Notes: generated by a model not told the origin, from the letters alone. A stretch of 64,000 nucleotides of DNA from Gemmatimonadota bacterium (GCA_039587315.1 JBDHIS010000021.1:1972-65971); one strand, 5' to 3'; positions 5,178 through 24,415 are shown, counted from the stretch's first letter. Translations and numbers: made by a program.

Positions 5178-5726
5178 GTGACCGTGCCTGAGCCCGCAGG
5201 GCCGGCGGATGACGCCCAGCTCATCGCTGCCTGGCGCGCCGGCGACGAGGTGGCGGCGGCGGAGCTGGTGCGGCGCCACACCCCGCCATTGGCGCGGTTC
5301 CTGGCGGCTTCGGGCGCGCGCGAAGACCTGGATGACCTGGTGCAGGAGACACTGTTTCGGGCGTTCAGGAAGATCGAGAGCTTCAGGGGTACTGCGAGTT
5401 TCTCGACCTGGCTGATGGCGATCGGCTCGAACGCGCTCAAGGACTTGCGACGCCGCGCCAAAGGGCGAACAGTGGTGCCGTTGGACGACCGGGAGCTGGA
5501 GGCGGAGGATGGAGATCCGCATTCACTCGCTCTGGAGCGGGACCTGTTGCGGCGGCTCGAGGCGGCCGTGAAGAAGCTGCCTCCGATGCAACGGGACGTC
5601 TTCTTGATGCGGGCCCAGCAGGGAGCCGAGTACGGCGAGATCGCCGAGGCGCTGGAAACGTCGGTCGGGGCGGCACGAGTGCACTACCACCAAGCCGTGA
5701 AGCGGCTGAAGGCGAAGCTGAAATGA
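5178..5726 (+). CDS. ECF-type RNA polymerase sigma factor (sigma-70 family, group 4)
   Basis: Region 2 (DLVQETLFRAFRKIESFRGTASFSTWLMAIGSNALKD) and region 4 (LPPMQRDVFLMRAQQGAEYGEIAEALETSVGAARVHYHQAVKRLK) are both recognisable. Confidence 0.85.
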   Translation: MTVPEPAGPADDAQLIAAWRAGDEVAAAELVRRHTPPLARFLAASGAREDLDDLVQETLFRAFRKIESFRGTASFSTWLMAIGSNALKDLRRRAKGRTVVPLDDRELEAEDGDPHSLALERDLLRRLEAAVKKLPPMQRDVFLMRAQQGAEYGEIAEALETSVGAARVHYHQAVKRLKAKLK

Positions 5727-6133
5727 ACGACCACGAACTGGAACGGCTGGCGAAGCAGCTCGGCAGGGCAGGTGACCGGGTGGATCCCGAAGCTACCGCT
5801 CGCGCCGTCCTGGACCGGCTGAAGGCCGAATCGGAGCAGGAGCCCTCGGTTCGGGCACCGGCGTGGACGCGCCGACCTTTGGTTCGCGTCGCAGCGGCAG
5901 CGGCCCTGGTGGCAGCCACCGTCTTGGGCGTCGAGCAGCTGCGGGGTCCAGCGACCCCGACCGATGCCGAACTCCCTGTTGCGGTCAGCCTGAGTGAGTT
6001 GGCGGCTGACGAGCTCAACTCCGTGCTCGATTCGCTCGATTACGAAGCTCCGGTCCACGAGCTGGTTCCCGTGGCCCTGGCCGATCTCAACGAGGACGAG
6101 CTGACAGCGCTCCTCGAGTCGTTGGAGGGATGA
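5723..6133 (+). CDS. putative anti-sigma factor (single-pass membrane protein, non-ZAS)
   Basis: ATGA overlap with the sigma gene. One TM segment (VRVAAAAALVAATVLGV). No HxxxCxxC motif. The assignment rests on position only. Confidence 0.5.
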   Translation: MNDHELERLAKQLGRAGDRVDPEATARAVLDRLKAESEQEPSVRAPAWTRRPLVRVAAAAALVAATVLGVEQLRGPATPTDAELPVAVSLSELAADELNSVLDSLDYEAPVHELVPVALADLNEDELTALLESLEG

Positions 6134-6612
6134 TGCGTACGATTCTCTTGGTTCCCGCTTTGGCCGCTCTCACGGTACAGCCGCTGACCGCACAAGAGCC
6201 CCCTGAGCGCCGCCAGCAATTGCAGCAGGAGGTGATGCGCCGCTTCACCGAGAACTATCGGGCGCAGGTGGGTCTGGACGATGAGCAAGCGGCCCGCTTC
6301 GAGGAGACGGCGCAGCGGTCCATGGAACACCGCACGACCGCCCTCCAGAGGGAAAGGCAGCTATGGATGGCGCTCCAGGGTCAGATGCGGCCCGGCGTGG
6401 GCGCCGACGAGGACAGCCTCCGGACCCTGATGGCCGCGTTGATCGACATTCAGCAGGAGCGTGTGGACCAGACTCGGGAGGAGATGGCAGCCTACGGCGA
6501 GTTCCTCACGCCGGTTCAGCAGGCGCAGCTGATGCTCTCACTGCGCAGGCTACAGCACCAGATCGAAGGAGCGCGGATGCGCCAGCGCGGACCGCCGGGG
6601 GGAAGACAGTAG
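6130..6612 (+). CDS. periplasmic LTXXQ-motif (Spy/CpxP-like) protein
   Basis: Signal peptide MMRTILLVPALAALTVQPLTAQ, a helical Gln/Arg-rich body and an FLTPVQQAQL motif. ATGA overlap with the upstream gene. Confidence 0.6.
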   Translation: MMRTILLVPALAALTVQPLTAQEPPERRQQLQQEVMRRFTENYRAQVGLDDEQAARFEETAQRSMEHRTTALQRERQLWMALQGQMRPGVGADEDSLRTLMAALIDIQQERVDQTREEMAAYGEFLTPVQQAQLMLSLRRLQHQIEGARMRQRGPPGGRQ

Positions 6613-6682: not shown

Positions 6683-7393
6683 TCAGAATCGAACGGTACC
6701 ACCAACAGCTACACCGCCATCTGCGGTTGGCGTGATGCTCAACCGCACCCCTTGGCCGCCGACCTCACTCCAAGACTCGCCCCCTGTAAAGGCACCTATC
6801 GCGCCACCGATGAGGAAGCCAACTCCGCCCCCGACGAGGGCTCCGAGCATAAAGGCCTCCCCCTCGCTGCTGGGGGCCATGATGCACCACCCCGTGCAGG
6901 GCTGGTATGTGGCTACGGCTAGTAAACCGACGGCGGGCGCGGCGAGGAGAGCTCCAACGAATCCGGTCTTCAAGGCTCTCTTTCCGCCGCCCGCGAAGAT
7001 TGCCGCGCTGAGGCCCCAGAAGGCGGCTGCTCCGACCACCTCGCCGGACGGCGCACCCCCGTTGCCGACTGCGAGCAGACCGACCACCACGGCTGTCCCG
7101 GTACCCCAGTAGAGGGCCTTCTTCCCGTCAAACCGGTGACGGGTGCCGACCTCGAGCCGGGTGACATCGCTCAGAGACACAGCTATCGTGTCGTCAACCT
7201 CCGCCAGGATCATCGAGTCGCCCTCCAATTGGAGAAGCGATCCCCTCAACTGCGTCCCGCAATCCGGCAGGCAGCCGGTGACGCGCATCCGGGCTCCGGA
7301 ATCGACGGCCACGAATCTGGACTGTGCCTGGCCCGTCCGAGCCCACGAGAGGGCCGCGAGGATGAGTGACAGGAGAGCAAGTGTCCGCCCCAT
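6683..7393 (-). CDS. hypothetical secreted/membrane protein with a Gly-zipper-rich C-terminal half
   Basis: Signal peptide MGRTLALLSLILAALSWARTGQAQ. GxxxG-rich hydrophobic segments. Ends ...GGTVRF, an OMP-like terminal Phe. Confidence 0.55.
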   Translation of the reverse strand: MGRTLALLSLILAALSWARTGQAQSRFVAVDSGARMRVTGCLPDCGTQLRGSLLQLEGDSMILAEVDDTIAVSLSDVTRLEVGTRHRFDGKKALYWGTGTAVVVGLLAVGNGGAPSGEVVGAAAFWGLSAAIFAGGGKRALKTGFVGALLAAPAVGLLAVATYQPCTGWCIMAPSSEGEAFMLGALVGGGVGFLIGGAIGAFTGGESWSEVGGQGVRLSITPTADGGVAVGGTVRF

Positions 7394-7507
7394 GGTGAGC
7401 TCCTGTGTGCGACGGGTCGAACGTGGCCGGAGCGTGTCAAGTGGACGTCAAGCAGGATTGTGGAACTGGACGGTGGGAAAGGGGTGGGGTTGCGAGCCGC
7501 GAACGAA

Positions 7508-7533
7508 AGGACCCCGGGGTTTCCCGGGGTCCT
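7508..7533 (-). terminator. hairpin downstream of the 7588-8121 gene
   Basis: AGGACCCCGGG-GTTT-CCCGGGGTCCT, followed on the minus strand by UUCGUU. Confidence 0.45.
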
Positions 7534-7587
7534 CTCGTACCTGCCCGTTTTTAATCGCGCGCTGGGCGAGCCGCGCCGCCGCGAGGC

Positions 7588-8121
7588 TCAGCCCGCGATC
7601 TTCACGTCGACGCAGCCGTAAAAGGCTCCGCTCGTGGCATCGCCCACCAGGCAGAACTCCACGGTTCCGCTCAGTCCGCCGAGACCCAGCTCGGTGGCCG
7701 CGAAGTGGAACAACAGATCGAGCGCGCCATTTCCATCGACGTCCACCAGGTGCTCGATCAGCACGTCGTCCCCGCTGAAGTCATGCTTCGGGGAAGCGAA
7801 CACATCGCCCCGGCCGAACAGGATGGTCGAGGTGGCGACCGTGGTCACGTCGAAGGGCTCGCCCTCCGACTCCGGCACCCCGAGGAGGGCCACCGTCACA
7901 GTCCCTTTCTTCTTCCGGCTGAGCACGTCGAAACCCAAGCTCTCGTCCGAGCCCAGCGCCGGCTTGAAGTCGATGGTCAGCTCCCGGGCGTCGTCCGGGA
8001 TCGTTGCGAACAGCCCCGGCTCCATCGGGGCTGCCGCACTCGCGTCTGGGGCGGCCGGGGACGCCCGCTCGCACCCGACAAGAGCGAGCATCGCCACCGG
8101 CACCAGCATCATCCGAAGCAT
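7588..8121 (-). CDS. hypothetical lipoprotein
   Basis: The start was moved to M85 of the track ORF (MLRMMLVPVAMLALVGCE, with lipobox LVGC). A DVDGNGALD loop is Ca-binding-like. The upstream 84 residues of the track ORF are Pro/Arg-rich read-through. Confidence 0.6.
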   Translation of the reverse strand: MLRMMLVPVAMLALVGCERASPAAPDASAAAPMEPGLFATIPDDARELTIDFKPALGSDESLGFDVLSRKKKGTVTVALLGVPESEGEPFDVTTVATSTILFGRGDVFASPKHDFSGDDVLIEHLVDVDGNGALDLLFHFAATELGLGGLSGTVEFCLVGDATSGAFYGCVDVKIAG

Positions 8122-8234
8122 CCGTACCTCCCACGTTGCCCGCCCTGCTGACACACAGACAGCGCGAAGGGCACGGAGGTAACGCAGCGCCACGATTTGG
8201 CGGCCACAGGGGCACGGACTGGCCGGTCGCCGGG

Positions 8235-9596
8235 CTAGTGGGTGGGGCGGCGGATCTTGCGGTAGAGAGTGCGGCGGTCGATTCCGAGGATGTCGGCTGC
8301 CTGACTGCGGTGGCCGTGGGTGTGGTCGAGCACGGCCCCTATGTACTCCTGCTGCAGCCGGTCGAGCGACCAACCCTCGTTGATGGGCTTATCCCACGAG
8401 GATTTGTGAGGCCCCGGGCCGCCTGCGGGCGGGGGCGGCACGGCGGCCGGTCCGGAGGTCGCCACGACGAGCGCACGCTCCACCCAATTCCGCAGCTCGC
8501 GCACGTTGCCGGGCCAGTCGTACGCCGAAAGGCCCTCCATCACCGGCTCCGGGATATCCACGGGCTCCATGCCGAGGTCAGCGGCGATCGTGTCCCGAAA
8601 GTGCAGCACCAGCAGCGGTATGTCGGCGCGTCGCTCCCTGAGAGGGGGCAGCTGAATCGGGAACACGTTGAGCCTGAACCACAGGTCCTCCCTGAAGCGC
8701 CCTCCGGCTACCTCCGCTTGCAGATCCACGTTAGACGCGGCAACGAGACGGAAGTCGATCGGCATGTCGTGAGCGGCGCCAACCCGCTGGATGGTGCGCT
8801 CCTCCACCGCCCGCAGGAGCTTGGCCTGCATCGGCAGTGTGAGAGTCTCGATCTCGTCGAGGAAGAGGGTGCCGGAGGCGGCTTGCTCGAACAGACCTGA
8901 TTGGCTCACCACGGCGCCGGTGAAGCTCCCCTTGGTATGCCCGAAGAACTCGGACTCCAAGAGTTGCTCGGGCACGGCGGAGCAGCTCACCGGCACGAAC
9001 TTCTTCCCCCTGCGGGGGGATAGCTCGTGGATGATGTGAGCCATCAACTCCTTGCCCGTTCCCGTCTCGCCGCTCAGTAACACGGTGACACGGGTTGGGG
9101 CCACCTGCTCGGCCAGGTCGAGCACGCGGTCGACTGTTCGCGTGGTACCGATGAACGGCGCCGTGCCGTTCGGGCTGCGCCGCCGGAGGCGCGCTACCTC
9201 GCGGTGCATGTCGGCCTGCCTGAGGGCGCGCTCGCATCTCAGCACGACCTCACCGATCTCGAACGGTCGTGTGATGTAGTCAGTGGCGCCCATCTGCATC
9301 GCGTTGACCGCGGTGCGTACGTTGTCGTCGGCTGCTATGACGATGACCTGAGCGCTGGAGTGGATGGCGCGGGCCTTGATGAGGAGGCAGAGGCCCTCCT
9401 GGCCCGGTTTGCAAGCGGCGAGCACGACCATGTCGAAGTCGCGCCGGGCCAGCTCGTCCATGGCCCGCTGCCCGCACGGCGACACCGACAAGGCACAGCA
9501 GTCGCGGCCAACCGCCGCGCGTGCGACTGCCAGGCCTTCCGACTCGTCGTCGTCGACGACGAGGATCTGCGGCTGACGGGCAGAATCGGCAGCCAC
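8235..9596 (-). CDS. sigma54-dependent enhancer-binding protein (NtrC family) with a degenerate receiver domain
   Basis: Walker A GETGTGKE, a GSFTGA loop (GAFTGA variant), an AAA+ core and a C-terminal Fis-type HTH (ILGIDRRTLYRKI). The start was set at the GTG at 9596, with GGGGGGAGG just upstream. Confidence 0.9.
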   Translation of the reverse strand: MAADSARQPQILVVDDDESEGLAVARAAVGRDCCALSVSPCGQRAMDELARRDFDMVVLAACKPGQEGLCLLIKARAIHSSAQVIVIAADDNVRTAVNAMQMGATDYITRPFEIGEVVLRCERALRQADMHREVARLRRRSPNGTAPFIGTTRTVDRVLDLAEQVAPTRVTVLLSGETGTGKELMAHIIHELSPRRGKKFVPVSCSAVPEQLLESEFFGHTKGSFTGAVVSQSGLFEQAASGTLFLDEIETLTLPMQAKLLRAVEERTIQRVGAAHDMPIDFRLVAASNVDLQAEVAGGRFREDLWFRLNVFPIQLPPLRERRADIPLLVLHFRDTIAADLGMEPVDIPEPVMEGLSAYDWPGNVRELRNWVERALVVATSGPAAVPPPPAGGPGPHKSSWDKPINEGWSLDRLQQEYIGAVLDHTHGHRSQAADILGIDRRTLYRKIRRPTH

Positions 9597-9666
9597 CGCT
9601 ACCTCCCCCCCTTTGGACTGGGCGCCGGCCAAGGAGCGGCACACCCGATCTTCGGGTTGAGGCCAA

Positions 9667-9715
9667 TGTCGCAGTCGGCCTCCTGGGCCACAAGGGAGTG
9701 GGACAAACTGCGACA
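9667..9715. promoter_or_regulatory. inverted repeat TGTCGCAGT-N31-ACTGCGACA; candidate enhancer (UAS)
   Basis: Perfect 9-bp arms lie about 90-135 bp upstream of the -24/-12 element, inside the divergent intergenic region. Confidence 0.3.
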
Positions 9716-9801
9716 CATCGAAAACCAGGAACAACTCGGTCCCGATTGGACAACCCACTCGCCGGTGTGTGGTTGTGCCCTTCCGTGCGCTTCCCGGGCG
9801 C

Positions 9802-9818
9802 TCGGCACGGCAGTTGCC
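9802..9818 (+). promoter_or_regulatory. sigma54 (-24/-12) promoter
   Basis: TCGGCACGGCAGTTGCC compared with the consensus YTGGCACGRNNNTTGCW. GG and GC have the correct spacing, and 15 of the 17 consensus positions are satisfied (12 of the 14 that are constrained). It lies about 140 bp upstream of the ATG at 9960 and next to a sigma54 activator gene. Confidence 0.6.
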
Positions 9819-9959
9819 ACCACGAGAGGTGCCGAGATCCACGGCGGTGGCCGACAGCCGGCGGGGCGGGTCGTTTCCCGGAAACTTGCATGGCGGGCCT
9901 CCGCACAACTCGTGACCGCGTCGGCAGTCAATAGGCCGGCGCGAAACAAGGAGGTTCGC

Positions 9960-11192
9960 ATGAGGCGGTCGAGACGATGGTTGGGTGTAGTGACGGCTGC
10001 CGTCGCCCTCGTGTTCCTGGGCGGCTGCGCCGACACACCGACGGATGTTGCGCTGGCGAAGGGCGGCGTCCCAGGTGCACCCGAGGGGAAGGGCAAGCCC
10101 AACGGCGAGGAGACTGCGGGCAACAACCTGTCGTACCCCGTCATCTGGTCGGAGGGTGTGCAGAAAGTGTTGCCCGGTACGCCTGGCATGGTGCCGGTGG
10201 TGCAGGGTGAGTGGTGGTACTGGTGGGGCACTGAGGGAGCGGATCCTGACATCACGCCGCTCAGCTGCCTGCCGGATCCGGACGACAACGCGCTATGCGA
10301 CGACGGCGTCGAGGGGCAGGCGACCGGCGCGACGCCGGGAGTCGGGCACGAGGCCGACCTCGTAAAGGCGTTCGTTCAGAAGGACCCGCTGAACCAGTGG
10401 CAGGCAGCTTCCGGCACTCCGGCTGAGTTCGGTGTGGACCAACTGGACGGCTCGCTGTACGTGGACTGGATCGACTGGGGCGACAACCTGGAGTCGGTAG
10501 ACTGGTACACCAAGTCACAGGTGCGCACCGAAGTGGTCCTGTTCCAGGAGAACCCCGATCCGCTGGTCCCCTGGCTCGAGTACGGGATGCGCCACGTGGA
10601 TGGCTGGGGCATCGACGAAGTCCATGGTCTGGCGGCCAGCATACCCGGCGATGTTCCCGAGATCGGCCCAGGATCGATGGCGACGGTGTTCTCTCCTTGC
10701 GCGCGGCTCACGATCCAGAAGCTCACGAAGGACCGGGATGATCCGACGCTCAGCACGACGTGGAACTCAGAGACCCACCAGTGGGATGGCGACGTCAACG
10801 CGCCGATCTTCAACCTCCCCGTATGGTCCGCCGGCGACGGTCCCGGCTACTACAACGCCGAGATCAACGTCAAGGGTCGGATCATTTTTGGCTACACCTG
10901 GAACGTGCGCAGACTGAACGACGATGGGGCTGGAGACTATCGCGCCACGTTCAGCTTCGACCAGACCTGTGGTACCGCGACGCTCAACACGTTCTTCGTG
11001 GAGGGCGTCACCGAGATAATCGTGCCGCTGGAGGAAGAGGCCTTGTTGACGGCCGACGACGACGGCGGCGACACCGGCGGTGCGACGGCCATGCTGGATA
11101 CCGGGAACAACCTCACCTACATCGACATCCGGATCCTCGAGCGCGGAGGCGGTGGAGGCGGTGGTGGAGGTGGAGGTGGCGGCAAGCCATAG
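9960..11192 (+). CDS. orphan lipoprotein with a C-terminal 13-Gly tail
   Basis: AAGGAGG lies 5 nt before the ATG at 9960. Signal and lipobox: MRRSRRWLGVVTAAVALVFLGGC. Trp/Asp-rich body with no motif I recognise. Ends ...ILER-G13-KP. The track ORF start at 9204 is read-through antisense to the activator gene. Confidence 0.75.
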   Translation: MRRSRRWLGVVTAAVALVFLGGCADTPTDVALAKGGVPGAPEGKGKPNGEETAGNNLSYPVIWSEGVQKVLPGTPGMVPVVQGEWWYWWGTEGADPDITPLSCLPDPDDNALCDDGVEGQATGATPGVGHEADLVKAFVQKDPLNQWQAASGTPAEFGVDQLDGSLYVDWIDWGDNLESVDWYTKSQVRTEVVLFQENPDPLVPWLEYGMRHVDGWGIDEVHGLAASIPGDVPEIGPGSMATVFSPCARLTIQKLTKDRDDPTLSTTWNSETHQWDGDVNAPIFNLPVWSAGDGPGYYNAEINVKGRIIFGYTWNVRRLNDDGAGDYRATFSFDQTCGTATLNTFFVEGVTEIIVPLEEEALLTADDDGGDTGGATAMLDTGNNLTYIDIRILERGGGGGGGGGGGGGKP

Positions 11193-11325
11193 ATGAAATC
11201 ACTCTCGGCCGGGTTCGCTTCAGCGGCGCTGCGGCCACCCCCCCAAGGGCGCGCACAAGACGCCGTTGTCCTGGGCCCGGCCACCCAAGTCCCAGATCCC
11301 GGGCAGGTTGACTGAGGAGGGGATC

Positions 11326-12345
11326 ATGAATGGAAAGAGCAGGGCGGCGGCGCGCGGCGCAGGGCGGCGCGCCCTATGGCTCGGCGCACTGATTGGTGTC
11401 GCCGGTTGCGCCGTGGATGGCGGTGTCGGACCGGCACCGGACTTCGCGGCGGCAGGACTCAGCAGCACCGGCCACGCGACGGGCAACATCGAGATCGTAT
11501 GGCCTGGCGGGAAGGGGAAGGAGATCGCCCCTGGGGAAGAGAAACTGGCGTTTGCCGAGTTCAATGCATTTCCGGCAACCGACAGGCAGCTCGCACGGGG
11601 AACGTTTGTATACCGCGTGCTCAACGCCGATGAGAGCCCGCACCGGGAGATCACGGCGAACGTGACCGGCGCCTTCGTGGACCCCGCGACTGCAAAGGCT
11701 TGGTTCGTGGGCCTGGTGGAGTCCGACGTCAAGATCTGCAGTGGGGGCGGGGGCTCGTGCGACGGGCACGATGACGGTACGACGCACGACGATGGCGGAT
11801 GCACTCACGATGACGGCACCACGCATGACGACGGTGGCTGCACCCACGATGACGGAACCACTCACGATGACGGTGGATGCACCCACGACGATGGTACGAC
11901 GCACGACGATGGCGGATGCACTCACGATGACGGCGCAACGCATGACGACGGTGGCTGCACCCACGATGACGGAACCACTAACGATGACGGTGGATGCACC
12001 CACGACGACGGCACGACGCACGACGACGGTGGCTGCGACGGCGGGGGCTCGGAGCCGGGTGGCGGTGGGCACGGGAGCGTGCCCGGCAAGGATCCTCGAG
12101 TGGGGCAGGTAGTGGTATTGAAGATGCACGACGTCGCTACCCCGGGTGCCGACGGCGACGGTGTCACGTGGAAGTGGTTTGCCCCTGAGAGCTGGGAATG
12201 GTTCGAGGACGTGGAAGGGCTGCGTCCGGCGCTGGGTCCGCTCGCAGGTGAGGGCGCGGACAAGGCGGGGCCGACTGAGTGGCCCCACCTGTGCAAGAAG
12301 ACGATCATCGGCGGGAACCTGGTAGTGCACCTGCCGAACAAGTAG
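11326..12345 (+). CDS. orphan lipoprotein containing a (HDDGTTHDDGGCT)x7 repeat
   Basis: GAGGAGG lies 5 nt before the ATG at 11326. Lipobox LIGVAGC. A His/Asp/Cys repeat block is embedded between two non-repetitive halves. Confidence 0.75.
   Translation: MNGKSRAAARGAGRRALWLGALIGVAGCAVDGGVGPAPDFAAAGLSSTGHATGNIEIVWPGGKGKEIAPGEEKLAFAEFNAFPATDRQLARGTFVYRVLNADESPHREITANVTGAFVDPATAKAWFVGLVESDVKICSGGGGSCDGHDDGTTHDDGGCTHDDGTTHDDGGCTHDDGTTHDDGGCTHDDGTTHDDGGCTHDDGATHDDGGCTHDDGTTNDDGGCTHDDGTTHDDGGCDGGGSEPGGGGHGSVPGKDPRVGQVVVLKMHDVATPGADGDGVTWKWFAPESWEWFEDVEGLRPALGPLAGEGADKAGPTEWPHLCKKTIIGGNLVVHLPNK
11767..12039 (+). repeat. 7 x 39-bp in-frame tandem repeat with 117-bp higher-order periodicity
   Basis: Units start at 11767, 11806, 11845, 11884, 11923, 11962 and 12001. 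At the DNA level unit 1 resembles unit 4, unit 2 resembles unit 5 and unit 3 resembles unit 6. Confidence 0.95.
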
Positions 12346-12484
12346 TGGAAGGGGGTCCGCCCGTGGGGGTCCGTGGCCAGCACGTTCGGCCACGCAACAA
12401 CGACCGCCCTGCTTGACCCCTCGGGCGGACTTGCCCTGCGGGACACACGCATCGCGGAGGCCACTCCATAGGCCGGCCGAGGAG

Positions 12485-12784
12485 CTAGTGGTCCACCAGC
12501 GCCCACCCCCTGTGGTGCCGGCAGGCGCCGCGGACCTTGCGGTAAAGTGTGCGGCGGTCGATACCCAGAATGGATGCCGCTCTGGTCCGATGGCCACCGG
12601 TTTGGTGCAGCACCGCAATGATGTACTCGCGCTCTACGTGCTCGAGGGTCCAGCCCTCCTTCAGCGGCCGGTCCCATTCCCAACCGGTGTCACCCGGATC
12701 GAGCACCGGACATAGGCGACGTCCCACGGGAGCCCTCGCCAGAGGTGGCGCCCTGCTACTTGGTTGACTGACCGGGAGGCCCAC
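12485..12784 (-). pseudogene. orphan Fis-type HTH fragment; probable remnant of a second sigma54 activator
   Basis: WDRPLKEGWTLEHVEREYIIAVLHQTGGHRTRAASILGIDRRTLYRKVR aligns with the last ~55 aa of the 8235-9596 protein. There is no AAA+ domain, no SD and no convincing start. Confidence 0.4.
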
Positions 12785-12857
12785 AGGTAACGGCGATGCA
12801 CCGGATCGATCCCGCGCGCCGGTGGTCCATGCCCAAGGGTTATATTCCCACTCCCAC

Positions 12858-12941
12858 GCCCGAGTGGTGGAATGGCAGACACGCGGGACTCAAAATCCCG
12901 TGCCGGTTAACGGCGTGTGGGTTCGACTCCCACCTCGGGCA
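12858..12941 (+). tRNA. tRNA-Leu (anticodon CAA)
   Basis: I folded it by hand. Acceptor GCCCGAG/CTCGGGC. Anticodon stem CGGGA/TCCCG with loop CTCAAAA. Long variable arm GCCG-TTAA-CGGC. T arm GTGGG-TTCGACT-CCCAC. Discriminator A. No encoded CCA. Confidence 0.9.
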
Positions 12942-13061
12942 TGACAGCAAGGAGGACAACTTGGAGGCCCGCCGAAGTTCGGTGGGCCTTGAGTGATCAG
13001 GCTCACTGGCCGTCCACCAAACCGGCTCTACTTTGGTACGGCCGACTCCAACGCATGTCGA

Positions 13062-13841
13062 ATGGCTCCAATGCACACTTCCAAGCCAAACCAAACCAAG
13101 CGGTTCTTGAGACTCAGCCTGCTGGCCTCGGTGCTGGCGTGGTCGGGCTGCTCCGGGGGACAATCCGCCCCGGCTCCCCAGCCTGAGCCTGTTTCCTCCG
13201 ACCGGAGTGCGGATCTCGCTCGGACCGTGGACCAGCAAGCCGAGCGCATTCGTTCGTTGCAGGAAGAATCGGCAGATCTTCAGCTCCAGGTCCTGGGGAA
13301 GGAGGCGGAGGTCGCGGAGCTTCGAGCGAAGCTCGATGAAGCCATCCAGGAAGTCGTACGGACCAAGGCGAAGCTCCAGAGCGTCGAGAGCCGGGCCGAG
13401 GCCGCTTCCACGATGGCGGAGGCGGAGATAGCCCTGAGGACCGTGCGGGACGCAGCCGCCGAGCCGGGCCCGGAGGTCTTCGAGGCCGAGCAACTCCTGC
13501 AGATGGCTGCCCGGGAGTTCGAGAACGAGAACTACGGCGGGTCGCTCTATCTGGCGAGCCAGGCCCAGAGTCTCGTGAGCATCGGACAGGTGCGGCTGGG
13601 GGGAGACGATCTACCGGGACGCACCGGTGAGGTGCTGTTTCCCATCCCGCTTCGGATCGAGGTAGCGAGAACCAGCAACGTGCGGGAAGGACCGGGGCTC
13701 AACTTCGACGTTCTCTTCACCCTGCAGGCCGACGCTCCGCTGATGGGTCTCGCCTACAAGGATCAGTGGGTGCGGGTCAGAGATGCCCGCGACCGCACGG
13801 GTTGGATTTTCCACGCGCTGGTCCGCGGATCGGACCGCTGA
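13062..13841 (+). CDS. lipoprotein with coiled-coil and C-terminal SH3-like domains
   Basis: Lipobox LAWSGC. Heptad-like region QAERIRSLQEESADLQLQVLGKEAEVAELRAKLDE. C-terminal ARTSNVREGPGLNFDVLFTLQADAPLMGLAYKDQWVRVRD resembles bacterial SH3. The start is approximate. Confidence 0.6.
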   Translation: MAPMHTSKPNQTKRFLRLSLLASVLAWSGCSGGQSAPAPQPEPVSSDRSADLARTVDQQAERIRSLQEESADLQLQVLGKEAEVAELRAKLDEAIQEVVRTKAKLQSVESRAEAASTMAEAEIALRTVRDAAAEPGPEVFEAEQLLQMAAREFENENYGGSLYLASQAQSLVSIGQVRLGGDDLPGRTGEVLFPIPLRIEVARTSNVREGPGLNFDVLFTLQADAPLMGLAYKDQWVRVRDARDRTGWIFHALVRGSDR

Positions 13842-13844
13842 GAC

Positions 13845-15517
13845 CTACGACCCCTTCGGTTTCTTAGACGGTTTTCCGCGCGCCGATTTGCCGCGCGCGC
13901 GGGGCGCCGTCTTGGCCTTGCGCACTGCGGCACCCACGACACGATTCCTGCCACGTCGCTTGGCCTGATACAACGCAGCGTCCGCGGCGGCAATTAGCGA
14001 CTCGGTTGTGTCGCCGTGCTGGGGATACTCGGCCAGCCCGATGCTCAGGGTGAGGGGAACGCCTTCGGCGCCTTGCGCCGCTTCCTCGGCAAACCGGGTC
14101 CGAATGCGTTCGGCCACCTCCCGGGCTCCGGAGAGCCCCGTCTGCGGGAGCATGACGAGGAATTCTTCCCCGCCGTATCGCGCCGCGTAATCGACTTCCC
14201 GAATGCAAGCAGCGAAGACTACCGCGATCTTGGCCAGGATCTCATCGCCGGCCAAGTGCCCGTGCGTGTCGTTGTACTTCTTGAAGTGGTCCAAGTCTAT
14301 CATCACAACCGTGAACGGCTCTTCATGTCGGTCGGCCCGCGCGATCTCCATGGCGACCGAGACCATGAGATGATTGCGGTTGTACAGGCCCGTCAGCCCG
14401 TCAGTGACCGACAGCTTCTCCAGCTCCTCGCGTCCGCTCCGGAGCCGGCCCACCATGGCATTGAACACTTCGGTCAGATACCCTAGCTCGCCGCGCGTGA
14501 CGACCGGCAGGTCCACCTCCAAGTCGCCTCCGGCAACGCGGGAGGCTCCGGCCGTGAGGCGATTCAGCGGCCGCACGATCAACAGCACAAGCACGTACGC
14601 GACGAGGCCAATGCTGAGCAACAGCGCGGATAAGACCAGGATGGTCTGGTTGCGCAACTCGGCGATTTGGACGAACGCTTCGTCCGTCGCGATCTCGGCC
14701 ACTACCGCCCAGTCGGGTTGCGGGACCGGATCCAGCGTCCCGACCACTTCGTTGCCCAAAGGGTCGACGTACTCCAAGGACCCGTCTCCCTGGACTGCGA
14801 AGAGTGCCCGCGCAATCGACGGCGTGAGCCGAGTCCTCATGAGCCCCGCAGGCACGAGGCGGGAACTCACCATGATGGCGCCGTCGCCGCGGAAGACGTA
14901 CACGTGTCCCGTCGCACCCGGTACCACCTCGCGCAGCGCCGCATCGATGGCGTGGAACGTGACCTTGGCGGCGAGGGATCCGCGCAAGATGCCCCCGTCG
15001 TCGATTGGCACGACGATCGTCATGGCTACCTGTTTCAGACCTTCATCCCAGTAGACCTGCCCCCGGACTTCATCCTCCTCGGTGACGCGGCTCAACCAGT
15101 CTTCCGGGAGCTGGAGCTCTTCTGGAGGCGCCGTGCCGGCCGCCACGGCGCCGTCGGGCGTGAGAATCGAGATGTTCTCGTAGTCCGTGGTGCGGTCGCG
15201 CACGGACGTGAGATAGTCGTTGAGGCGGCGGGCCGCCTGTTCTCTCTGACGACGAAGGAGCCGGCAAAGACCCGCAGCTCGTAGAACCGCTCCTTGAGCC
15301 ACAGGTCGGTCACCCGCGCACCATGCCGGCTGACGTTCTGCAGCTCGGCGGTGATCTTCTCCGTGAGTGCCCGTCTGTTGTGGACGTAGGAGAGCCACGT
15401 CGTGGTCAGGGAGGGAATGAGGGTCGCGATCAGGGCAAACACCAAGATCCTGCGCTTGATGCTGTCCAGTCGAAAGGCGTGGAGAAAGTTCGCGGCGTAA
15501 CGTTCCCAGGAACCCAA
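13845..15517 (-). CDS. diguanylate cyclase (TM, periplasmic sensor, TM, HAMP, GGDEF) with an apparent 1-nt frameshift near 15245-15255
   Basis: GGEEF active site (ARYGGEEFLVM) and HAMP (RPLNRLTAGASRVAGGDLEVDL). The N-terminal TM and sensor start (track ORF 15092-15517) is in a different frame from the rest (track ORF 13845-15728). The 1673-nt span is not a multiple of 3. Confidence 0.8.
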
Positions 15518-15763
15518 TGCCCCTCCTCGAGCGGTCTCTCAGGATACGTGTGGCCTCTCGGCCATGCAATGGGGTTTGGCTGCCCTGCCACAAGAGACCC
15601 TGGCAGCCGTTGCGCTCCACCACCACCTGGGGCTCGGGACGCTCTCGGCGAGGGCGTTGGTCTGGCGGAGGCGGGAAGGGCCACGTATCCTGCTGGGTGT
15701 GACTCGGTGGTGCTCGATACTCACACAAGCCGGCACGACTCAGAATCCCGCGGAGGAGATATC

Positions 15764-22924: not shown

Positions 22925-24415
22925 GTGAACTCATCCGTCAAAGTCGTTCCGCTCGACAGGGTTGCGGCGCCTCTGCTCGCCGTCGCCGTAGGCGAGCTGA
23001 GCAGCGGGAAGGTGCCCAGCTCACTGCTCGGACTGGACGCGAACGCAGCCGGTGAGCTGTCCAGGCTGATCGGTAGCGGCGACTTCACGGGAAAGCGTGA
23101 CCAGCAGGCGGTAGTCTATCCCAAGAAGGGTGCGAAGCGACTCCTGCTGGTTGGCCTTGGACCGCCGGCCGAGATCACGCGCGGCGCAGTGCGCCGCGGC
23201 GCGGCGGTGGCCGCGCGGAAGGCGTTGGAACTCGAAGCGGAGGCGATGGCCTTCCACCTGGCACACGAGACCCACGGCGGAGTCCCGCCCGCGGTGGTGG
23301 GACAGGTTGCTGTGGAGGGGGTGGCGCAGGGTGCGTGGCAGTTCGGCTCCCTCAAGGCGACCGAGAAGAAGAAGGGCGTCCGCGTGCTCGAGATAATCGC
23401 CACGCGGGAGGAGCGCCCCGACGTGGAGCGGGGGCGCAAACTCGGCGCGGCCGTGGCTAGCGGCCACCAGTTGGCCCGCAACCTCCAGGCGCTCCCGGGC
23501 AATGTGTGCACTCCCTCCTATCTCGCCGACATCGCCCGGCGGCTGGGCAAGGCGTACGAGTACAAGGTCACGGTCCTGAACCGCGCCCACATGGCCAAGG
23601 CGGGCATGGGAGGGCTGCTGGCGGTGGCGCAAGGGTCACTCCAGGAGCCGCGCTTCATAACGATCGAGTACCGCAACGCCGGCCGGACTCCACCCATCTG
23701 CTTCATTGGCAAGGGCATAACGTTCGACTCGGGCGGGATCTCCCTCAAGCCGGCCGAGAAAATGGAGGAGATGAAGTACGACATGTCCGGCGCCGCCGCC
23801 GTGCTCGGACTGTTCGAGACCCTCGCCCACATCAAGCCCAAGGCCAACGTGGTCGGGATCGTACCGGCCAGCGAGAACCTGCCGTCGGGCACCGCCATCA
23901 AGCCGGGCGACGTGGTGCGCTCCCTCCTCGGGAAGACCATCGAGATCCAGAACACCGACGCCGAGGGCCGCCTCGTTCTGAGTGACGCGCTGGCTCACGC
24001 GCGCCGCTTCAAGCCGGCCTGCGTAATCGACGCGGCGACTCTCACCGGCGCCGTCGTCATCGGCCTGGGGCATCACGCCACGGGCCTGATGGGGAACGAT
24101 GATCACCTGCTCGACGAGGTCAGGCACGCGGGTGACCTCGGTGGGGAGCGGTGCTGGCCGCTGCCACTGTGGGATGAGTATCGCGAGCAGATCAAGTCGG
24201 ACATCGCCGATGTCAAGAACATCGGCGGGCGACCCGCCGGCACGATCACTGCCGGTTGGTTCCTGCGCGAGTTCGTGGACGGCTTCCCCTGGGCGCACCT
24301 CGACATCGCCGGCACCGCATGGACGGACTCGGACCGACCCGACATGGCCAAGGGCCCGACCGGCGTCGGAGTCCGGCTGTTCACCGAATTCGTCCTGGGG
24401 CGTGCCCTGGGGTGA
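22925..24415 (+). CDS. pepA: leucyl aminopeptidase (M17)
   Basis: NTDAEGRLVLSDAL signature, GKGITFDSGGISLKP and MKYDMSGAA. Confidence 0.9.
   Translation: MNSSVKVVPLDRVAAPLLAVAVGELSSGKVPSSLLGLDANAAGELSRLIGSGDFTGKRDQQAVVYPKKGAKRLLLVGLGPPAEITRGAVRRGAAVAARKALELEAEAMAFHLAHETHGGVPPAVVGQVAVEGVAQGAWQFGSLKATEKKKGVRVLEIIATREERPDVERGRKLGAAVASGHQLARNLQALPGNVCTPSYLADIARRLGKAYEYKVTVLNRAHMAKAGMGGLLAVAQGSLQEPRFITIEYRNAGRTPPICFIGKGITFDSGGISLKPAEKMEEMKYDMSGAAAVLGLFETLAHIKPKANVVGIVPASENLPSGTAIKPGDVVRSLLGKTIEIQNTDAEGRLVLSDALAHARRFKPACVIDAATLTGAVVIGLGHHATGLMGNDDHLLDEVRHAGDLGGERCWPLPLWDEYREQIKSDIADVKNIGGRPAGTITAGWFLREFVDGFPWAHLDIAGTAWTDSDRPDMAKGPTGVGVRLFTEFVLGRALG

Follow-up and report, generated by a model that had tools for sequence, protein, structure and literature searches.

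A probable sigma-54 regulatory unit for two unannotated families of exported proteins at a Gemmatimonadota locus

Introduction

What controls a pair of exported proteins that match no characterised family, and what might such a pair do? The question is raised by positions 8235 to 12784 of a 64,000-nt stretch of Gemmatimonadota bacterium DNA (GCA_039587315.1, JBDHIS010000021.1:1972-65971), which is called the window here. The window has a G+C content of 66.6%, and the nearest relatives of its genes are found in metagenome-assembled genomes of Gemmatimonadota. Within it, the gene for a bacterial enhancer-binding protein (bEBP), the activator, lies divergent from two consecutive genes for predicted lipoproteins, LP1 and LP2. 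A first-pass annotation of the window proposed dedicated control of these two genes by sigma-54 and the activator. Such control of a two-gene operon is backed by synteny, a -24/-12 element, and activator sites in about ten lineages. Judged from sequence comparison, the regulatory layer described below is well supported and probable. The effector layer, in which LP1 and LP2 would handle metal outside the cytoplasm, is tentative.

Layout of the locus

The features of the locus are as follows, in window coordinates.

7588-8121, minus strand: LP3, a 177-aa lipoprotein open reading frame (ORF) with the lipobox LVG/C
8235-9596, minus strand: the activator (bEBP), 453 aa, with the Pfam domains given below
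363 bp between the divergent genes: the intergenic region shared by the activator gene and LP1
9667-9683: upstream activator site A, TGTCGCAGTCGGCCTCC, left half-site perfect
9699-9715: upstream activator site B, TGGGACAAACTGCGACA, right half-site perfect
9803-9818, plus strand: sigma-54 -24/-12 promoter, cGGCACGgcagTTGCc, with a predicted transcript start near 9829
9829-9959, plus strand: predicted 5' leader of about 131 nt, with a CCUCC stretch able to pair with the Shine-Dalgarno (SD) sequence of LP1
9960-11192, plus strand: LP1, 410 aa, exported and all-beta by prediction, with a C-terminal G13-KP tail
11326-12345, plus strand: LP2, a 339-aa lipoprotein with a repeat array in DNA at 11767-12036
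12485-12727, minus strand: a small gene with an HTH_8 domain only, about 80 aa, maximal ORF to 12784
12858-12941, plus strand: tRNA-Leu(CAA), directly beside the small HTH_8 gene

The coordinates that the first-pass annotation gave for the activator, the -24/-12 element, an inverted repeat, both lipoprotein genes, the glycine tail of LP1, and the array of LP2 were all correct, and the lipoprotein gene that it placed after the activator gene is LP3. LP1, LP2, and LP3 are mutually unrelated in hhalign comparisons (LP1 with LP2, LP2 with LP3).

A regulatory unit conserved across lineages

The comparisons are based on 80 loci with LP1 and 32 with LP2, mapped with hidden Markov models (HMMs). In related loci of high G+C, genes were placed by HMM matches and not by ORF calls. 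The contig of L001 is the same sequence as the window and was therefore left out as an independent locus; the nearest independent relative is L003. The arrangement of the window, with the activator gene on the minus strand and LP1 and LP2 on the plus strand, is kept in related genomes. It recurs in about 20 loci, nearly all from Gemmatimonadota (L003, L014, L016-L020, L022, L024, L030, L031, L036, L037, L064, L073, L089, L102, and L109). In an Acidobacteriota locus (L053), the activator and LP1 are present without a match to LP2. The gap between LP1 and LP2 is 0-130 nt across related loci. In the window, it is 133 nt and contains neither a sigma-70-like promoter nor a terminator, in agreement with the earlier claim that no second promoter separates the two genes. 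On the other side of the unit, LP3 homologs follow the activator gene in at least eight loci (L003, L016, L018, L037, L064, L092, L101, and L102). The LP3 family is narrow, with no Pfam or NCBIfam match, and LP3 is probably co-transcribed with the activator gene.

A near-consensus -24/-12 promoter had been proposed in the divergent intergenic region, and it is present there. cGGCACGgcagTTGCc agrees with TGGCACG-N4-TTGCW at 10 of 12 specified positions, and its GG and GC lie 10 nt apart. Its core, GGCACGgcagTTGC at 9804-9817 on the plus strand, is the sole exact -24/-12 match in 64 kb. The only other near-match, with one mismatch at 24239-24252 (+), lies inside a leucyl-aminopeptidase-like ORF and is probably due to chance. 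Upstream of the promoter, by about 95-135 bp, are the two fully complementary arms of an inverted repeat, TGTCGCAGT (9667-9675) and ACTGCGACA (9707-9715). The 9-bp inverted repeat of the first-pass annotation is therefore real and lies where it was placed. However, its arms are the outer half-sites of two activator sites and not the halves of one hairpin-like element. The centres of sites A and B are 32 bp apart, approximately three helical turns, and the centre of site B is about 97 bp from the GG of the -24 element.

These elements recur in place. Of 23 activator-linked loci, 20 have GG-N8-TTGC ahead of LP1, compared with 7 of 49 unlinked loci (Fisher p = 3e-9), or with 2 of 13 unlinked loci above 55% G+C (Fisher p = 4e-5), although these values overstate independence because the loci share ancestry. 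It mostly lies 357-401 nt before a conserved NNLSYP motif. Approximately ten sequence-diverged groups retain the promoter element while their flanks change. Most promoter-aligned loci also carry two TGTCGC-N5-GCGACA-type sites (TGT-N11-ACA) about 95-140 bp upstream, and these tandem palindromic sites hold a fixed offset while the flanking sequence diverges. The GGGACA-N4-GCGACA form of site B is also seen in L003, L016, L020, L073, and L089. Thus, the element has the marks of a sigma-54 promoter: it is kept in orthologous loci, with upstream sites within 80-150 bp.

Could the -24/-12 match be a coincidence, with another sigma factor transcribing LP1 and LP2 and the adjacent activator regulating something else? 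Shared ancestry apart, several figures from the window count in this direction. An exact match is expected 0.32 times per window and occurred at least once in 27 of 100 shuffles, so that within the window alone the match could be due to chance. Both activator sites deviate from the palindrome by three mismatches, and the count of such matches in the window, 71 against an expected 66, shows no enrichment. An RpoN box was not found in the window, and the rest of the genome was not searched for rpoN. The promoter is thus not significant on its own and takes its weight from position and conservation; the support for the sites is likewise their positional conservation. It is the recurrence of element, spacing, and tandem sites in about ten diverged lineages, only beside the activator, that makes coincidence very improbable. 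In addition, no sigma-70-like promoter was found across 7400-13000.

Two contigs labelled Planctomycetota/Phycisphaerae (L027 and L028) are near-identical to the Gemmatimonadota locus L030 across the promoter, leader, and LP1, and they are probably mis-binned.

The leader between promoter and LP1

In the window, the centroid fold of the leader pairs GGGCCUCC with the SD sequence of LP1. A structured leader was nevertheless rejected for the window, given an energy z-score of -0.72. Sister loci (L004, L007, L016-L020, L024, L027-L031, and L036) carry a different leader between the -24/-12 element and the LP1 start. It is conserved, about 190 nt long, and contains several hairpins, and it is confined to loci with an activator that lacks a receiver domain. 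An upstream CUCU pairs with the SD sequence, and compensatory changes are seen in 8 of 35 predicted pairs. Rfam gave no match in window 7000-13500 or in six sister loci, tRNA aside. A small ORF within the sister leader was considered and rejected, since frames and stops are not conserved. The sister-locus leader is a candidate for a new cis-regulatory RNA.

An activator without a phospho-acceptor

The activator has the Pfam domains Response_reg, Sigma54_activat (1.6e-63), AAA_lid_14, and HTH_8 (8.6e-14, residues 411-450), and its gene starts with GTG behind a GGAGG SD sequence. GETGTGKE and FLDEIE (Walker motifs) are present, and the sigma-54 contact loop is GSFTGA, an A-to-S variant of GAFTGA. 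The protein thus combines an NtrC-family AAA+ sigma-54 interaction domain with a Fis-type DNA-binding domain (DBD). Against the NCBIfam equivalogs, every activator score is under the cut-off.

The receiver was described earlier as having lost its phospho-acceptor residues. Alignment with the NtrC receiver confirms this: D11 and D12 are retained, but D54, T82, and K104, the residues of a phosphorylatable receiver, are replaced by A, A, and R. The loss is a feature of activators linked to LP1. In none of the nine linked, receiver-bearing lineages is position 54 an Asp: the window has A; L003, L022, L037, and L064 have C; L014 has F; L073 and L089 have L; and L109 has Y. Control activators on the same contigs that are not linked to LP1 (L012 and L025) retain D, T, and K. 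No histidine kinase adjoins the activator. Since the phospho-acceptor Asp is absent, no kinase can switch the activator on, and its sequence marks it as a kinase-independent sensor. Other LP1-linked activators, about 377-383 aa long, form a second class without any receiver (L004, L016-L020, L024, L030, L031, and L036).

What could such a receiver sense? Two cysteines are retained in eight of the nine linked receiver lineages. One belongs to a 'CG' at the beta2-alpha2 loop and the other to 'C[KRA][PAD]G', two residues after position 54, which reads 'CKPG' in the window. From the CheY/NtrC fold, we take both to lie on the face of the phosphorylation pocket. Two conserved Cys near the receiver active site suggest a thiol-based redox or metal cue, and the modified receiver probably responds to an intracellular signal. 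There are precedents for this kind of domain. Asp-less receivers with a Cys substitution, some of them encoded beside iron-uptake genes, form a catalogued group for which redox sensing has been proposed (PMC4395418), and RitR is an Asp-less receiver with experimentally shown redox sensing (PMC5965902). How pseudo-receivers switch remains an open question (PMC12632262).

A conserved gene for a stand-alone DNA-binding domain

The first-pass annotation took the ORF at 12485-12784 on the minus strand for a remnant of a second activator. This does not hold: it is a conserved DBD-only gene under purifying selection. Its only Pfam domain is HTH_8 (1.4e-15), a helix-turn-helix (HTH) domain, and a GTG start behind a GAGGG SD sequence gives a protein of about 80 aa (12485-12727). 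Over 75 codons compared with L003, dS is about 1.05, dN is 0.19, and dN/dS is 0.18. In contrast, the frame upstream is not conserved (29% nucleotide identity with L003). The gene recurs as a short ORF in five lineages and in three different positions in the locus: in L003 at the same position, in L037 and L064 just after the activator, and in L022 divergent from LP1. Pseudogene or remnant status was rejected from the dN/dS of 0.18 and the conservation as a unit. There is also no decayed AAA+ domain upstream, because the distance from the maximal ORF to the tRNA is only about 73 bp. The match between the protein and the C-terminal segment of the activator extends over the recognition-helix region, GIDRRTLYRK. 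Most likely, the protein would compete for sites A and B or occupy them together with the activator.

Proposed regulatory mechanism

The activator would bind sites A (9667-9683) and B (9699-9715), the neighbouring pair of TGTCGC-N5-GCGACA type. Bound there, it would open the sigma-54 promoter about 100-130 bp downstream, at 9803-9818, by ATP hydrolysis. The expected outcome is a single LP1-LP2 transcript, with the activator gene and then LP3 transcribed divergently. The small HTH protein most likely occupies the activator's sites and would tune or block activation.

LP1 and LP2, two widespread families

The two genes were described as consecutive lipoprotein genes with no nameable domain. Lipoboxes that predict lipidation are present in both, FLGG/C in LP1 and VAG/C in LP2, behind the SD sequences AAGGAGG and GAGGAGG. 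Neither protein has a match in Pfam or NCBIfam. Profile searches of the PDB gave a best E of 0.26 for LP1 and no match for LP2. Foldseek with the AlphaFold2 (AF2) models, both against the PDB and LP1 also against BFVD, gave no match with E <= 0.001 (TM-score <= 0.17). The family and structure searches thus connect the pair with no characterised family. In this sense the pair is an orphan, as the first-pass annotation had it, but it is not private to this locus: the LP1 superfamily spans more than ten phyla. A literature search on poly-Gly lipoproteins and sigma-54 in Gemmatimonadota found nothing specific.

LP1 has at least 759 homologs at 50-64% identity. In a profile search, at least 746 clusters at 50% identity matched with E <= 1e-3 and 251 with E <= 1e-30, and relatives occur in 173 GTDB species representatives from more than ten phyla. 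The taxa include Gemmatimonadota, Chloroflexota, Bacteroidota, Desulfobacterota, Planctomycetota, Nitrospirota, and Acidobacteriota, as well as Actinomycetota (Acidimicrobiia), Cyanobacteria (Crocosphaera and Cyanothece), and Competibacteraceae. An alignment of 53 sequences contains about 70 residues that are invariant across phyla, in motifs that include DWGDNLES-DW, MRH--GWGI-E-HG, and EINVKG. The AF2 model is all-beta and multi-domain (pLDDT 78.7). As claimed earlier, LP1 ends in 13 glycines, within the sequence ER-G13-KP (Gly codons 11145-11183). A poly-Gly tail, usually followed by basic residues, is found in 64 of 78 homologs with the RILER-type motif, which makes the tail a family trait on sequence grounds. 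Lipoprotein status is not such a trait: among 120 homologs, about 33 show a lipobox. LP1', a class of shorter and diverged paralogs with the hallmarks of LP1, also precedes LP2 (L087, L089, and L109).

Some homologs extend the LP1 architecture. P0064, P0082, and P0112 (Caldilineaceae, Pirellulaceae-type) have a Cys/Glu-rich extension fused after the poly-Gly, and P0119 carries inserted CBM_5_12 chitin-binding modules. Large LP1-domain proteins contain Big_2, CARDB, and Beta_helix/NosD domains and the C-terminal sorting domain of the type IX secretion system (T9SS). In Bacteroidota, these fusions locate the LP1 module to the cell exterior. The signal peptides of LP1 (9960-10040) and LP2 (11326-11410) contain the twin-arginine-like SRRWLG and GRRALWLG. 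Tat export is doubtful, since these motifs are not conserved in homologs.

The regulators beside LP1 vary. In other phyla, LP1 adjoins a NarL-type response regulator (REC + GerE), usually just upstream, which is often accompanied by a PAS/GAF histidine kinase. LP1 is therefore an inducible gene for which at least three kinds of sensor have been recruited. To our knowledge, sigma-54 is not known in cyanobacteria, so the regulation of LP1 must differ there. In Crocosphaera (L062), the LP1 gene adjoins a group II intron reverse transcriptase gene (L062 8069-9898). L062 and Cyanothece (L080) share a conserved 291-aa ORF of no known family after LP1, at about 11107-12003.

LP2 has at least 166 homologs, and 75 of 120 of them carry a lipobox. 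The His/Asp/Cys array of 91 residues noticed earlier is confirmed as 6.9 copies of a 39-nt repeat at 11767-12036, or (GGCTHDDGTTHDD)x7 at the protein level. A stretch of 94 residues across it holds 8 C, 13 H, and 30 D. A higher-order unit of 117 nt is repeated at 95% identity, which suggests that the array expanded recently. In the AF2 model, residues of about 50-136 and 262-335 form one beta-sandwich (pLDDT >90), and the repeat is a disordered insertion in it (147-248, pLDDT <50). The kind of repeat (GGC[ST]-H-D-D-G...) is conserved across the family, with 0-9 GGC[ST] units. LP2 follows LP1 in Gemmatimonadota and in several Bacteroidota. The LP2 of L001 (8001-8927, compared with 11326-12345 in the window) lacks 31 residues of the conserved N-domain on an otherwise identical contig, and the difference is either an assembly variant or a population variant.

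What the pair may do

In the proposed effector layer, LP1 and LP2 would act jointly outside the cytoplasm as an inducible metal-handling pair. LP2 would display a flexible, high-capacity Cys/His/Asp loop on a small beta-sandwich, and LP1 would be its highly conserved, beta-rich partner, tethered via Gly-rich linkers. The metal-binding case for LP2 is made from composition and gene context. In Chloroflexota (L006, L009, and L059), the protein encoded downstream of LP1 is not homologous to LP2 but has a G/C/H/D repeat of the same kind. DUF2202 ferritin-like lipoproteins follow LP1 or LP2 in L033, L041, L065, and L109, with a triple domain in L109, and six further loci have a lipoprotein distantly similar to these. 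DUF2202 has been noted in ferrosome iron-storage clusters. In L076, the gene after LP1 encodes a CHRD protein that has a His-rich insert. The DUF2202 neighbours, the Cys-rich fusions, and the Chloroflexota repeat neighbours are circumstantial support for metal buffering. We regard the metal-handling pair as possible rather than probable, and the regulatory and effector layers together as the best explanation of the locus, at somewhat short of an even chance.

Several observations weigh against this reading. No recognisable metal motif is present in LP1. LP2 has one Cys per 13 residues, unlike metallothioneins, and these Cys may form disulfides in an oxidising periplasm. The partnership is not strict either: most LP1 genes lack LP2, and several loci in Bacteroidota, Ignavibacteria, and Verrucomicrobiota have LP2 but no LP1. 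Moreover, the LP1-like fusions with T9SS tails, Big_2, CARDB, and CBM_5_12 point to surface binding or adhesion.

Among the possible functions, metal handling ranks first, polymer binding or catalysis second, and structural or adhesion and chaperone roles follow. LP1 could be a surface or extracellular module that binds or processes a polymer such as a polysaccharide or the matrix, with LP2 as an accessory and with regulators that sense the substrate or surface contact. The CBM_5_12 inserts of P0119 fit this, as do the LP1-like domains in giant proteins with Big_2, CARDB, Beta_helix/NosD, and T9SS sorting domains and the all-beta, multi-domain model of LP1. The approximately 70 invariant residues are also rich in W, D, E, H, R, Y, N, and Q, like carbohydrate-active sites. 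However, Pfam, NCBIfam, the PDB sequence search, and Foldseek revealed no similarity to a glycoside hydrolase, lyase, or CBM, and no conserved transporters or sugar-utilisation genes lie nearby. A polymer role also leaves the recurrent Cys/His/Asp-repeat, DUF2202, and His-rich neighbours unexplained, and we consider it unlikely. If LP1, LP2, and LP3 were instead structural proteins of the surface, adhesion, or biofilm matrix, sigma-54 would switch them on during remodelling of the cell exterior. Sigma-54 regulons are reported to be enriched for cell-exterior functions (PMC3162934). The fusion of LP1-like domains to adhesin-type Ig repeats and T9SS tails, the syntenic dCache-HAMP-GGDEF gene in L001, L003, and L089, and the Gly-rich flexible tethers are in line with such a role. 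Yet cross-phylum identity of 50-64% and some 70 invariant residues are unusual for fast-evolving adhesins or matrix proteins, and conserved secretion or assembly genes are missing from the vicinity, which leaves this role decidedly unlikely.

Less likely still is a general envelope-stress holdase or chaperone like Spy, CpxP, and ZraP, in which the disordered acidic loop of LP2 protects periplasmic proteins. The operon logic is that of zraP-zraSR and psp, with a sigma-54 promoter divergent from the activator; the array of LP2 is predicted to be disordered; and an operon for an extracytoplasmic function (ECF) sigma factor and anti-sigma factor, with an LTXXQ-like exported protein, lies just upstream (5178-6612). 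However, this upstream 160-aa protein lacks Pfam support, neither LP1 nor LP2 matches the LTXXQ, Metal_resist, or Spy families, and a generic acidic chaperone would not need so specific a conserved Cys/His pattern. Such a role is improbable.

A wider form of the metal-handling reading can be put forward, although it is speculative and unlikely in its full extent. LP1 and LP2, with DUF2202 partners in some lineages, would then be an unrecognised multi-phylum system for extracytoplasmic handling of metals or minerals, with new folds, iron as the leading guess, and repeatedly rewired sensors. In the window, the sensor would be a thiol-sensing activator with an Asp-less receiver, antagonised by a DBD-only paralog; in sister lineages, it would be a receiver-less activator combined with a new leader RNA.

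Neighbouring genes

An ECF sigma factor (5178-5726), an anti-sigma-like protein (5723-6133), and a 160-aa exported helical protein (6130-6612) are encoded in one operon on the plus strand. The helical protein has an 'LTPVQQ' motif reminiscent of LTXXQ (CpxP/Spy/ZraP), with no significant Pfam match. The 236-aa protein encoded at 6683-7393 on the minus strand is exported, and its Gly-rich C-terminal half resembles a Gly zipper. It was found only in the identical contig L001 and has no Pfam or NCBIfam match.

On the other side, an exported protein with a coiled coil and an SH3 domain (12993-13841, plus strand) and a dCache-HAMP-GGDEF diguanylate cyclase (13845-15563, minus strand) are syntenic with the locus in L001, L003, and L089. 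Some bEBPs, such as FleQ and VpsR, bind cyclic di-GMP, and by analogy a link between the diguanylate cyclase and the activator is conceivable. Recent horizontal transfer beside tRNA-Leu was considered and rejected, since the G+C content of LP1 and LP2, overall and at third codon positions, matches that of the neighbours. The synteny of the locus continues past tRNA-Leu in L003 and L089, which also counts against recent transfer, and base composition at the tRNA-Leu(CAA) region gives no sign of an island. In L019, a tRNA likewise lies just past LP2.

Comparison with known systems

Among the closest parallels is ZraP-ZraSR, the sigma-54 system of E. coli and Salmonella for envelope and zinc stress (PMC4987338). 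Both systems have an NtrC-family activator divergent from a sigma-54 promoter that drives a metal-ligand-rich exported protein, upstream activator sites in the shared intergenic region, and an inducible extracytoplasmic response. Here, however, there is no neighbouring sensor kinase, the receiver cannot be phosphorylated because it has lost D54, T82, and K104, the effectors are lipoproteins unlike ZraP, Spy, and CpxP, and a DBD-only paralog is present. LP1, LP2, and LP3 lack any Pfam or NCBIfam match and thus fall outside the ZraP/Spy/CpxP (LTXXQ) family. PspF-pspA, an envelope-stress system with a receiver-less bEBP, shares sigma-54 activation without phosphorylation, and the receiver-less class of LP1-linked activators resembles PspF. 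In contrast to psp, the locus has no PspA-like negative regulator, the activator of the window keeps a degenerate receiver, and the sister loci instead have a conserved structured 5' leader.

The receiver itself recalls the Asp-less receivers with a Cys substitution and RitR. In place of the phospho-acceptor Asp, the window has Ala, while L003, L022, L037, and L064 have Cys, and Cys is conserved near the former active site. The difference is that the output here is an AAA+ sigma-54 activator and thiol sensing is putative; moreover, RitR uses a C-terminal Cys, whereas the Cys here are those of the beta2-alpha2 'CG' and of position +2. The small gene resembles Fis and stand-alone HTH_8 proteins in its length of about 80 aa, its single Fis-type HTH, and its weak NCBIfam Fis matches. 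Unlike Fis, it lacks the N-terminal arm and matches the activator C-terminus (W-x-W-D-x-P-L-x-E-G-W-S/T-L...GIDRRTLYRK).

The metallothioneins SmtA and BmtA and the protein Hpn are His/Cys-rich proteins for metal storage or buffering. LP2 shares with them a dense Cys/His/Asp stretch of low complexity and a variable repeat number. In contrast to these proteins, LP2 is predicted to be extracytoplasmic and lipid-anchored, its array is inserted in a conserved beta-sandwich, and it has one Cys per 13 residues, no Cys-X-Cys clusters, and no sequence or fold similarity.

The locus is of use beyond its own function. Two large unannotated protein families are now defined, with a conserved operon partnership, a poly-Gly tail, and a Cys/His/Asp loop. 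The circuit is compact enough to be rebuilt in E. coli from the promoter, two sites, the kinase-independent activator, and the DBD-only paralog. The natural set of Asp-less receivers with a conserved Cys on an AAA+ activator bears on the switching of pseudo-receivers (PMC12632262). Cultured carriers of LP1 include Maribellus luteus, Desulfoluna limicola, Desulfopila aestuarii, Crocosphaera chwakensis, and Flavihumibacter stibioxidans.

In sum, the circuit works like zraP-zraSR or psp and is a member of neither, as it has no kinase, phosphorylatable receiver, or homolog of ZraP/Spy or PspA. The kind of regulation is known. The novelty lies in a bEBP with an Asp-less receiver that carries Cys, in a paralog with the DBD alone, in the leader RNA of the sister loci, and above all in the two effector families, whose function is possibly new as well.

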